From: Faecousia sp.
GTDB lineage: Bacteria > Bacillota > Clostridia > Oscillospirales > Oscillospiraceae
Direction of reading: 5' to 3'
DNA length: 64,000 bases
NCBI GenBank assembly: GCA_045126495.1
Contig: JBGVON010000052.1
Span: forward strand, 4,516-68,515
The notes beneath the pieces are model-generated. The model made no database searches and was not told the origin of the DNA. It saw only the letters and a program-made list of their open reading frames with translations. The translations under genes were made by a program, and so were the position numbers. Below are positions 15,314-59,259 of this stretch, in pieces (positions within the stretch are counted from its first letter, which is position 1; every line of letters begins with the position of its first letter).

Positions 15314-15342
15314 TTGACAAAACTGGGTTCAATGTGTATAAT
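15314..15342 (+). promoter_or_regulatory. Consensus SigA promoter of the tRNA operon
   Basis: TTGACA-17 bp-TATAAT with upstream A tracts (UP-element-like). Confidence 0.9.
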
Positions 15343-15578: not shown

Positions 15579-15654
15579 GCCTCTGTAGCTCAGTTGGTAG
15601 AGCAGTGGACTGAAAATCCACGTGTCGTTGGTTCGATTCCGACCGGAGGCACCA
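15579..15654 (+). tRNA. tRNA-Phe(GAA)
   Basis: 76-nt cloverleaf, anticodon loop CTGAAAA, encoded CCA. Confidence 0.97.
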
Positions 15655-15768
15655 CATAATTCTTGGTTCCTGAATTGGAATCGAAAGGCGGCTCTTGGCA
15701 ATATGCCGGTGGCATATTGCAACCGCCGTGGCTTTTCCGCAGAAAAGCGATTCCGACCGGAGGCACCA
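15655..15768 (+). repeat. tRNA-Phe-linked mirror element (114-bp period)
   Basis: 15748-15768 is an exact copy of tRNA 15634-15654 (C56 to CCA). 15664-15685 is a decayed antisense copy of the tRNA 3' end. Internal hairpins at 15698-15720 and 15732-15747. Confidence 0.88.
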
Positions 15769-15807
15769 CTTTTCTAAGCATAGGTCCTTGTGTACAGGGG
15801 CCAATAT

Positions 15808-15883
15808 GCGGGTGTAGCTCATCTGGTAGAGCGCCACCTTGCCAAGGTGGAGGTAGCGAGTTCGAGCCTCGTCACCCGCTCCA
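15808..15883 (+). tRNA. tRNA-Gly(GCC)
   Basis: 76-nt cloverleaf, anticodon loop TTGCCAA, U73, encoded CCA. Confidence 0.97.
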
Positions 15884-16021
15884 ATTATTTAACCCGAGCC
15901 AATGGGCTCGAAAGATATGATCCAATAGTCCTGTGGACTGTTGATCGCGACGGCTTGACGGAGCGATTCCGTAATTTTGCGTTAGCAAAAAGCAAACGAG
16001 CCTCGTCACCCGCTCCAATTA
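15884..16021 (+). repeat. tRNA-Gly-linked mirror element (134-bp period)
   Basis: 15997-16021 is an exact 25-nt copy of 15863-15887 (C56 to CCA plus ATTA). Antisense GGCTCGAA at 15905-15912. Hairpins at 15923-15943, 15946-15965, 15975-15990. Confidence 0.88.
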
Positions 16022-16060
16022 AATAGGATAGGAACGCTTAGCGTTCCTGTTTTCATAAAT

Positions 16061-16135
16061 GGTACCGTGGCCAAGCGGTAAGGCAAGAGTCTGCAAAACT
16101 CTCATTCCCCAGTTCAAATCTGGGCGGTACCTCCA
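16061..16135 (+). tRNA. tRNA-Cys(GCA)
   Basis: 75-nt cloverleaf, anticodon loop CTGCAAA, U73, encoded CCA. Confidence 0.97.
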
Positions 16136-16172
16136 AAAATAACGGATACCCATTTGGGTGTCCGTTATTTTT
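16136..16172. terminator. Bidirectional terminator after tRNA-Cys
   Basis: AAAATAACGGATACCC-ATTT-GGGTGTCCGTTATTTT, with A and T tracts on both sides. Confidence 0.8.
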
Positions 16173-16298
16173 ATGTATGTCCAGATTTGAATAATGTAAA
16201 TGCAACGCGGACGAGCGTTGCCCGCACCGGCTGGACGGTGCGGAACCTTAATTTTTGCCTTTGGCAAAAATGCAAACAAATCTGGGCGGTACCTACCA
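16136..16298 (+). repeat. tRNA-Cys-linked mirror element (162-bp period)
   Basis: 16277-16294 is an exact copy of 16115-16132, followed by ACCA. Antisense ...CCAGATTTGAA at 16172-16191. Hairpins at 16202-16221, 16222-16243, 16252-16270. Confidence 0.88.
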
Positions 16299-58995: not shown

Positions 58996-59033
58996 AAAGA
59001 CCGCATTTGTCCAGATAGACAAATGCGGTCTTT
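58996..59033. terminator. Bidirectional terminator between glyA and the tRNA-Ala locus
   Basis: AAAGACCGCATTTGTC-CAGATA-GACAAATGCGGTCTTT, a perfect 16-bp stem. Confidence 0.88.
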
Positions 59034-59034
59034 T

Positions 59035-59183
59035 TGGTGGACCTGATCGGATTCGTTTAATCAATGTTCGCCTCCGTCAAGCCGTCGGCGGTAACGCTCG
59101 TCCGCATTACATTTGTACTTTCGAATCCGCTCGGCACAAATATCGTACCAATAAAAGACCACCCTAAAAGGGTGGTCTTTTAT
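59035..59183 (-). repeat. tRNA-Ala-linked mirror element (149-bp period)
   Basis: 59035-59055 is an exact copy of 59184-59204 (C56 to CCA on the minus strand). Inverted T-loop copy at 59120-59129. Core 59059-59114 is 43/56 identical to 16198-16253. Confidence 0.9.
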
Positions 59184-59259
59184 TGGTGGACCTGATCGGA
59201 TTCGAACCGACGACCCCCACAATGCGAATGTGATGCGCTCCCAACTGCGCTACAGGCCC
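59184..59259 (-). tRNA. tRNA-Ala(CGC)
   Basis: 76-nt cloverleaf on the minus strand, anticodon loop TTCGCAT, G3:U70 alanine determinant, encoded CCA. Confidence 0.96.

Follow-up and report, generated by a model that had tools for sequence, protein, structure and literature searches.

tRNA-matched antisense arms in short protein-less elements behind tRNA genes of Faecousia

Insertion in the T-loop and duplication of the tRNA 3' end are reportedly classical for the integrases that target tRNA genes, and insertion sequences of the IS200/IS605 type use guides of 4-5 nt and are not known to make a target duplication. A further point of comparison is the RtT repeat behind the tyrT gene of Escherichia coli: a mobilome-sequencing preprint reports that coverage of tyrT-rttR is raised in exonuclease-treated DNA under stress, the mode of action being unknown, and, as quoted there, the rtT RNA is a known processed product (10.1101/2024.07.17.603846). 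The present analysis concerns short, protein-less elements behind the tRNA genes of Faecousia sp. (Bacillota; Clostridia; Oscillospirales; Oscillospiraceae) and is centered on a window of 64,000 nucleotides (contig JBGVON010000052.1 of GenBank assembly GCA_045126495.1, positions 4,516 to 68,515 of the forward strand), which holds four of them, behind tRNA-Phe, tRNA-Gly, tRNA-Cys and tRNA-Ala; the whole assembly of this genome (1.76 Mb, 103 contigs, 43 tRNAs; 91% complete) was analyzed. Each unit has the same layout: a short loop or terminator-type hairpin (x), a segment antisense to the 3' part of the tRNA just upstream (the arm), a hairpin-rich core (62-85 nt in the four window units), and a direct repeat of tRNA positions C56 to CCA. 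The arms match the adjacent tRNA, the units were inserted as blocks, and cores with covarying structure are shared between different tRNAs. An original prediction, made from the letters of the window, held that each arm is matched to its own tRNA and proposed for it three possible roles: a target-specifying guide, an arm of a folded recombination site, or a conformational switch on the precursor RNA.

Antisense arms and the adjacent tRNA

All four antisense segments lie where they had been predicted, and each ends opposite T54 of its own tRNA, with 9 (Phe), 8 (Gly), 11 (Cys) and 10 (Ala) bases in exact complement. On the plus strand, the tRNA-Val, -Asp, -Phe, -Gly and -Cys genes form one operon with a single promoter at 15314-15342. 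Behind tRNA-Phe(GAA) (15579-15654, identified by ARAGORN and Rfam tRNA, with T54 to A76 at 15632-15654), a short loop at 15655-15663, missing from the empty sites of sister species, leads into the arm at 15664-15685 (TGGTTCCTGAATTGGAATCGAA, or TGGT..GGAATCGAA), the last 9 nt of which exactly complement T54-C62 and in which TGGT and CCT also agree with the expected reverse complement; the core (15686-15747) is made up of an outer stem, a hairpin H1 with the loop CCGGTGG, and a hairpin gcttttc/gaaaagc, and is followed by the duplicate of C56 to A76 (15748-15768, 21 of 21 positions) and then by the native Phe-Gly spacer. tRNA-Gly(GCC) (15808-15883) is followed by an arm of 8 exact nucleotides with a mismatch at the ninth base (15905-15912, GGCTCGAA), a core (15913-15996) with H1 caatagtcc/ggactgttg and the hairpins cgacggcttgacggagcg and ttttgc/gcaaaa, and a duplicate of C56 to A76 (15997-16017). 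Behind tRNA-Cys(GCA) (16061-16135), a terminator-type hairpin (16136-16172) forms the tip of a palindrome between the tRNA 3' end and the arm, and the exact part of the arm (16181-16191, CCAGATTTGAA) precedes a core (16192-16276) with two GC hairpins and tttttgcc/ggcaaaaa and a duplicate from C56 (16277-16298) with a one-base insertion ahead of CCA, the mark of a decaying copy. tRNA-Ala(CGC) stands apart from the operon on the minus strand (59184-59259) and has a core of the same type as Cys; its hairpin, terminator A (59147-59183), includes a TGGT (59147-59150) that lengthens the terminator stem over the ACCA of the tRNA, as had been proposed, and is followed by the arm (59120-59129, CGGATTCGAA), the core (59056-59119) and the duplicate of C56 to A76 (59035-59055, 21 of 21). 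Two details of the prediction fared less well. The upstream extension of the Cys arm, in which C-to-T changes were said to keep G-U pairing, amounts to two transitions and is indistinguishable from chance, and the inverted TGG...CCA ends ascribed to the elements are present in the Phe and Ala copies of the window and absent from its Gly and Cys copies.

Across this genome, 39 tRNAs have a trailer of at least 100 nt, and 17 of these carry an exact antisense match of at least 9 nt anchored at T54, compared with a mean of 0.065 (maximum 2) in dinucleotide-shuffled trailers and a mean of 3.5 (maximum 10 in 2000 permutations) when tRNAs and trailers were re-paired at random. When copies truncated by contig ends are included, about 22 of the 43 tRNAs bear an element, and no arm disagrees with the tRNA on its own contig. 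Since the first cross-genome table had been selected by the 9-mer, a second sample was picked by the core hairpin H1 alone (CAAYANNCCNGTGGNNTRTTG), with a tRNA no more than 400 nt upstream; among its 21 copies, the arm matches at 9 of 9 positions in 17, has one mismatch in 3, and has three mismatches in 1 (L101, behind tRNA-Arg-CCG). The arm also tracks the adjacent tRNA through variants of one isoacceptor between species (e.g., tRNA-Lys with CCGG versus CCAG is accompanied by CGGAGATTCGAA versus TGGAGATTCGAA, and tRNA-His with ATTATCC versus ATCACCC by GGATAATGGG versus GGTGATGGG), and does so likewise in Ala-CGC, Pro-GGG, Ser-TGA and Tyr, with cores that are common to different tRNAs. The predicted match to the neighboring tRNA is real. 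The conserved 9-mer is, however, common to up to 11 of the 43 tRNAs, so that the tRNA-specific signal sits mainly in positions 57 and 59-65, together with a minority of copies that have long arms.

Palindromes, block insertion and shared cores

From T54 of the tRNA to the facing base of the arm (A54'), most copies span 77-91 nt, of which 60-99% is self-complementary. A tRNA-His copy (L059) is a perfect palindrome of about 38 + 3 + 38 nt, in the order tRNA 3' part, A-tract, stem, loop, stem, T-tract and then TGG..TCGAA, and a tRNA-Ala copy (L011) is near-perfect. The complement of the acceptor strand has decayed in most copies with its length retained and with TGG(T) often kept, and the 9-14 nt of the arm that face the T-loop and T-stem are intact in most copies; this intact stretch is the same one that is able to pair with the start of the duplicate, as a helix termed P1. 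His copies with one type of core have a duplicate of just 9 nt although their arm is long. The prediction that the arm can pair with either the tRNA's own 3' end or the duplicate was supported by calculation with RNA parameters (-19 to -22 kcal/mol for the tRNA tail versus -17 to -21 kcal/mol for the duplicate), DNA parameters gave the same order, and on these predicted energies the arm pairs about equally well with both. Two side observations concern the tips of such palindromes. Between the near-identical viral-contig records L072 and L073 (positions ~462-500), a tRNA-His palindrome differs solely by inversion of its 3-nt loop, ttt versus aaa, in the manner of a flip-flop, and the stem of the terminator hairpin behind tRNA-Cys (16136-16172) is unrelated among five species of the genus (compared with L006, L008, L124 and L125), the tRNA-Cys itself being nearly identical in them, so that hairpin tips seem to change fast.

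Four other species of the genus (G010, G012, G226 and G232) have the Phe, Gly and Cys genes separated by short native spacers with no element, and the homologues of these spacers in this genome stand 3' of the duplicates rather than 3' of the tRNAs (e.g., the Gly duplicate is followed by a homologue of the native Gly-Cys spacer found in G010, G012 and G232). The trailer behind the tRNA is unrelated to the trailer behind the duplicate in 10 of 16 complete copies; three of the remaining six are whole-unit tandem repeats, and three have 4-7 leading bases in common (in Thr-tgt about 15, with one mismatch). The inserted DNA therefore consists of x, arm, core and duplicate, placed just after CCA, which as sequence is equivalent to the insertion of C56..CCA, x, arm and core in the T-loop. 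Behind the Ala duplicate, a second terminator (B, 58996-59033, minus strand) has only its outer stem (aaaagacc/ggtcttt) in common with hairpin A.

The cores are not tied to one tRNA. The type found behind tRNA-Phe recurs behind another tRNA within this genome at 94% identity and behind tRNA-Tyr and tRNA-Asn of two other genomes (G007 and G008) at 76-91%, with arms that are those of the local tRNA and with homology that ends precisely at A54' (left) and C56 (right). Numerous other pairs of cores with 79-86% identity link different tRNAs and, conversely, the core type behind tRNA-Ala(CGC) differs between this genome and G232. An alignment of 25 three-hairpin copies predicts P1, H1 (loop CCGGTGG) and a third hairpin H3; of the 24 pairs predicted, 16 show compensatory changes, the covariation of P1 arising by construction. 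The second hairpin, H2, has a long stem whose loop is CAAA or another variant, and it covaries as well; mimicry of a T-arm by H2 was rejected on account of this long stem, its CAAA tetraloop and a G-C pair replaced by U-A in a compensatory change. The stems are nearly all Watson-Crick, with few G-U pairs and no enrichment of them on the sense strand (32 versus 65 in minimum-energy folds of the two strands), and the mean advantage in stability of the sense strand is just 1.7 kcal/mol. This pattern of predicted pairing, which is not decisive, suggests hairpins at the level of DNA rather than a classical structured RNA.

The structural data bear on one alternative, considered unlikely here, in which the elements are an RtT-like structured RNA derived from the tRNA precursor, with P1 between arm and duplicate closing around two or three hairpins and with a tRNA-like 3' tail; the roles proposed are tRNA processing, service as a decoy for tRNA-binding enzymes, or regulation, with the arm acting as a structural or switch strand. 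Release from the precursor would presumably resemble that of E. coli RtT from tyrT. Consistent with such an RNA are the position of the Phe and Gly copies within the single-promoter operon, the compensatory changes predicted in P1, H1 and H3, the slightly better folding of the sense strand in 29 of 41 copies, and the near-equal pairing of the arm with tRNA tail or duplicate. E. coli RtT, moreover, has the same layout, and its rtT RNA is a processed product, as quoted in the preprint (10.1101/2024.07.17.603846). However, a strong terminator stands ahead of most copies and promoter-like sites were not found at them, the rare G-U pairs are not enriched on the sense strand, and a single tRNA may be followed by different core types in different species. 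The orthologous sites are empty in four sister species, and the elements are therefore dispensable. Rfam offers no match either, RF00391 included. A switch on the precursor RNA, as had been proposed for the arm, is possible only where the copy is part of the operon transcript, as for Phe and Gly; the majority of copies are promoterless and behind a terminator.

The elements measure about 100-170 bp, form tandem arrays behind tRNA-Gly-CCC, tRNA-Arg-TCT and tRNA-Thr-GGT, and in some copies carry cargo between tRNA and arm, namely a small membrane open reading frame (ORF) together with four TTTGCACCCCC repeats, a Phd/RelE-like pair, an amidohydrolase gene, or an XRE regulator accompanied by a second tRNA-Pro; in these copies the arm lies 0.9-2.1 kb away from the tRNA. 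These forms, and the junctions described above, also bear on an enzyme-free origin by copy-choice, to which little probability is given. A nascent strand would fold back at the trailer hairpin, copy the 3' part of the tRNA backwards as far as the T-loop, switch to another element's core through microhomology at the conserved, partly palindromic TTCGA, and return at the T-loop, which would make the arms by-products of copying with no guide role. The arms are indeed always local sequence, the register of arm and tRNA 3' end is maintained over the intervening hairpin, the junctions fall within the near-palindromic T-loop, no partner enzyme was found (see below), the trailer or terminator is duplicated as well in L068, L136, Thr-tgt and L104, and E. 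coli RtT shows a like layout in an unrelated phylum with an unrelated core. Such copying is at odds, however, with the Phe and Gly copies, in which new sequence comes directly behind the tRNA and the native spacer is found once, 3' of the duplicate; these two copies are not what a simple fold-back on the native trailer predicts. The conservation, with covariation, of the core hairpins and their loops (CCGGTGG, CAAA) implies that the core is under selection, the arm of the cargo copies is 0.9-2.1 kb from its tRNA, and some 20 multi-switch events per genome are many.

Several further arrangements were noted among the larger or atypical copies. In the copy behind tRNA-Ser-TGA of this genome (L107:7920-9019, contig C25), the cargo copy of ~970 bp includes an AT-rich ORF of ~157 aa with predicted membrane helices, along with the four TTTGCACCCCC repeats and one inverted copy of them; there, AGAGTTAG (the complement of tRNA positions 64-71) lies ahead of the terminator hairpin, which is itself followed by GGATTCGAA, as though the hairpin lay inside the antisense arm. 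The Phd/YefM-like and RelE/ParE-like toxin-antitoxin pair stands between two copies of one element behind a tRNA-Tyr (L085, genome G273), with a GCACCCC inverted repeat ahead of the second arm. A second class of tRNA-trailer elements (L108:8273-8425, on contig C88 of this genome behind tRNA-Thr-GGT; L077, behind tRNA-Pro; and C88, behind tRNA-Leu-CAA) has a GC-rich core (gagcgagtggcagcggtc...), a duplicate that begins in the 5' strand of the T-stem or at G53 (24-28 nt), and an arm that complements tRNA positions ~39-56, which lie 5' of the junction, rather than the duplicate itself. Behind a tRNA-Lys element on an IMG/VR contig (L074:9960-10216) are at least four tandem 30-nt units (tcgcgtaagcgaaga + CCCAGCGGGTCACCA), each of which closes with the final 14 nt of the tRNA.

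Partner enzymes, distribution and the preferred reading

This genome contains eight tyrosine recombinase genes (Phage_integrase matches), two of them beside tRNA-Ala(GGC) and none adjoining an element. A single RAYT-like Y1 (HUH) transposase gene was observed (contig C31:4421-4894, L106:522-995); the GTAGGGGCGAAC..GTTCGCCC repeats within the gene and directly 3' of it make up a separate REP-like family, and repeats related to this family also sit 3' of the His element on contig C98. The gene was rejected as a partner of the elements, since it is part of a different repeat family (GTAGGGGCG...) and shows no co-occurrence with them. In 101 genomes of the genus, RAYT-like homologues are present in 53, H1 in 58 and both in 34 (odds ratio ~1.8 from a hand tally), which is no real association, and, given that these are incomplete metagenome-assembled genomes (MAGs), is not proof of independence. 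The logic of a retroelement primer-binding site, in which the element takes in a copy of a tRNA 3' end, was likewise set aside, this genome giving no RVT_1 (reverse transcriptase) match.

The recombinase genes bring in a further alternative, judged very unlikely, in which the elements are decayed integrase islands or prophages: the tRNA and the duplicate would be attL and attR, the core would be what is left of attP arms, and the antisense arm would be incidental, a tyrosine integrase having crossed over in the T-loop and the interior having been lost later. A T-loop location with a 3'-end duplicate is reportedly classical for such integrases, and the direct repeat of the tRNA 3' segment from the T-loop, with the tRNA restored, is as in tyrosine-integrase att sites; the cargo copies, the GCACCCC repeats near an arm and the eight tyrosine recombinase genes, two beside tRNA-Ala(GGC), also agree with it. 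On the other side, membership among integrase att sites is disfavored by the finding of no integrase gene within any tRNA-adjoining element, and about 20 uniform copies of 100-170 bp with common cores stand behind about 20 different tRNAs, none by an integrase. The sequence 5' of the duplicate is, moreover, unlike the T-stem 5' strand expected at a core-type site, and no described attP site is known to have an inverted arm matched to the tRNA.

The H1 hairpin is patchy in its distribution, being found in 58 of the 101 genomes sampled from the genus, in 8 of 201 in the family sample and in 6 of 401 in the class sample (the latter two counts include this genome), and a reversed control pattern gave zero matches. 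Two matches outside the family are genuine tRNA-matched elements, one of them behind a tRNA-Trp without encoded CCA, where the terminator is duplicated as well. Matches in IMG/VR are host tRNA loci or tRNA 3' halves displaced to prophage ends and revealed no autonomous element. No similarity to the elements was found in GenBank phages or PLSDB plasmids; Rfam searches of all element regions at permissive E-values returned only tRNAs and sub-threshold chance hairpin matches, and literature searches yielded no description of such elements or of tRNA-matched arms. Within the window, the genes next door to the elements are of the TmcAL type and acetate kinase; the elements themselves contain no ORF.

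The reading preferred here, plausible though held tentatively, is that the elements are non-autonomous DNA insertions at the T-loop and 3' end of tRNA genes, with the arm as half of a folded copy of the target site. The tRNA 3' part (T54..CCA), the hairpin x and the arm would make one long palindrome which, in single-stranded or extruded DNA, would fold into a duplex copy of the T-arm and 3' end. The antisense arm would then be half of a folded attachment site, comparable to the single-strand attP of the CTX phage or to integron attC, or could equally be an extended guide of the IS200/IS605 type next to a hairpin. Each element would bring a replacement tRNA 3' end, with the original displaced downstream as the duplicate; the arm may be re-templated, i.e., copied from or corrected against the local tRNA and not carried as a fixed sequence, and selection would keep just its T-arm part (9-14 nt), which could also pair with the duplicate and close the core. 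Counted in favor of this DNA reading are the specific matching, the common cores with different arms, insertion as a block, the regular palindrome, the covariation of the core, the tandem and cargo-bearing forms, and the patchy distribution. Of the three roles proposed for the arm in the original prediction, that of an arm of a folded recombination site fits best, given the long palindrome, the Watson-Crick stems, block insertion and the empty sites, and DNA-level folding may serve recombination. The guide role is weakened, with just 9-14 nt conserved and a fit to many tRNAs.

Several observations weigh against the preferred reading. The most frequent arm 9-mer (the complement of TTCGAGTCC) is compatible with 11 of the 43 tRNAs of this genome, and a 9-mer that fits so many cannot alone select the cognate tRNA; judged from their sequences, the conserved part has little tRNA specificity and present-day arms make poor tRNA-specific guides. 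Re-targeting would require a simultaneous change of both arms by some putative route. No recombinase, transposase or reverse transcriptase tied to the elements was found: Pfam Y1_Tnp has no match in the element-rich genomes G225, G231, G222 and G007, which are incomplete MAGs, and RVT_1 has none in this genome at 91% completeness. Transcription of the Phe and Gly copies inside the tRNA operon leaves room for a role as RNA, and presence and absence among species could reflect precise loss between direct repeats. A broader claim, namely that the elements belong to a widespread protein-less mobile class (Clostridia and, as RtT, E. coli) with a portable core, arms re-templated at each tRNA, and a folded target copy that directs or stabilizes insertion in the T-loop, is regarded as doubtful.

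Relation to described systems

If the elements are mobile, gene-less DNA of ~100 nt can occupy half of the tRNA genes of a genome and inactivate none, by bringing a substitute for the tRNA 3' end together with a target copy that is self-complementary. Should re-templating of the arm also hold, they would represent a new mode of site-specific mobility that uses only enzymes of the host. On a practical level, the elements fragment assemblies at tRNA genes, where many contigs end inside them, and the partial tRNA copies that they leave are possible false att sites of islands. Contigs C21, C40, C37, C87, C91 and C100 of this genome were observed to end within or beside elements, at repeats that appear to break the assembly.

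The closest likeness is to RtT (RF00391), which is also found behind tRNA genes, singly and in tandem, in units that have a direct repeat of the tRNA 3' end as their last part, a trait shared by the elements of this genome, which sit in tRNA operon trailers and spacers and end in the same manner. Each E. coli tyrT-tyrV unit contains GGGGAAGGAT (the complement of tRNA-Tyr 59-68), what remains of a TTCGA, a core with a GC hairpin and, at its end, a ATCCTTCCCCCACCACCA copy, so that the order of antisense arm, core and duplicate is as in the Clostridia elements; to our knowledge, this logic of antisense and sense arms is absent from the published description of RtT. The core, however, is unrelated and the boundary of the arm is at A59 in RtT versus T54/C56 here, and RF00391 (gathering score 45 bits), which does find E. 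coli RtT in a control search, has no match in the whole of this genome even at E<=10. Through this link, an old unexplained repeat becomes a member of a comparative series with a genetically tractable host. With integrase islands and prophages and the integrase-less cis-mobilizable elements (CIMEs), the elements have in common insertion in the T-loop, an element-borne 3' end, a displaced duplicate, tandems and occasional cargo; they differ in their size (~100-170 bp), in having no integrase, in a single core family that serves about 20 tRNAs, and in the tRNA-matched inverted arm. By analogy of anatomy, the inverted repeat that could fold into a duplex copy of the target site resembles the CTX phage attP used with XerCD and the attC sites of integrons, and the complementary segment beside a hairpin, the Watson-Crick stems and the tandem insertions resemble the ends of IS200/IS605 elements and of their non-autonomous PATE derivatives; in the IS200/IS605 comparison, hairpins and a complementary segment (9-23 nt) beside a hairpin are seen, yet a 21-nt duplicate is present. 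From CTX attP, integrons and IS200/IS605 the elements are set apart in that no Xer-type enzyme, integron integrase or Y1 enzyme is linked to them.

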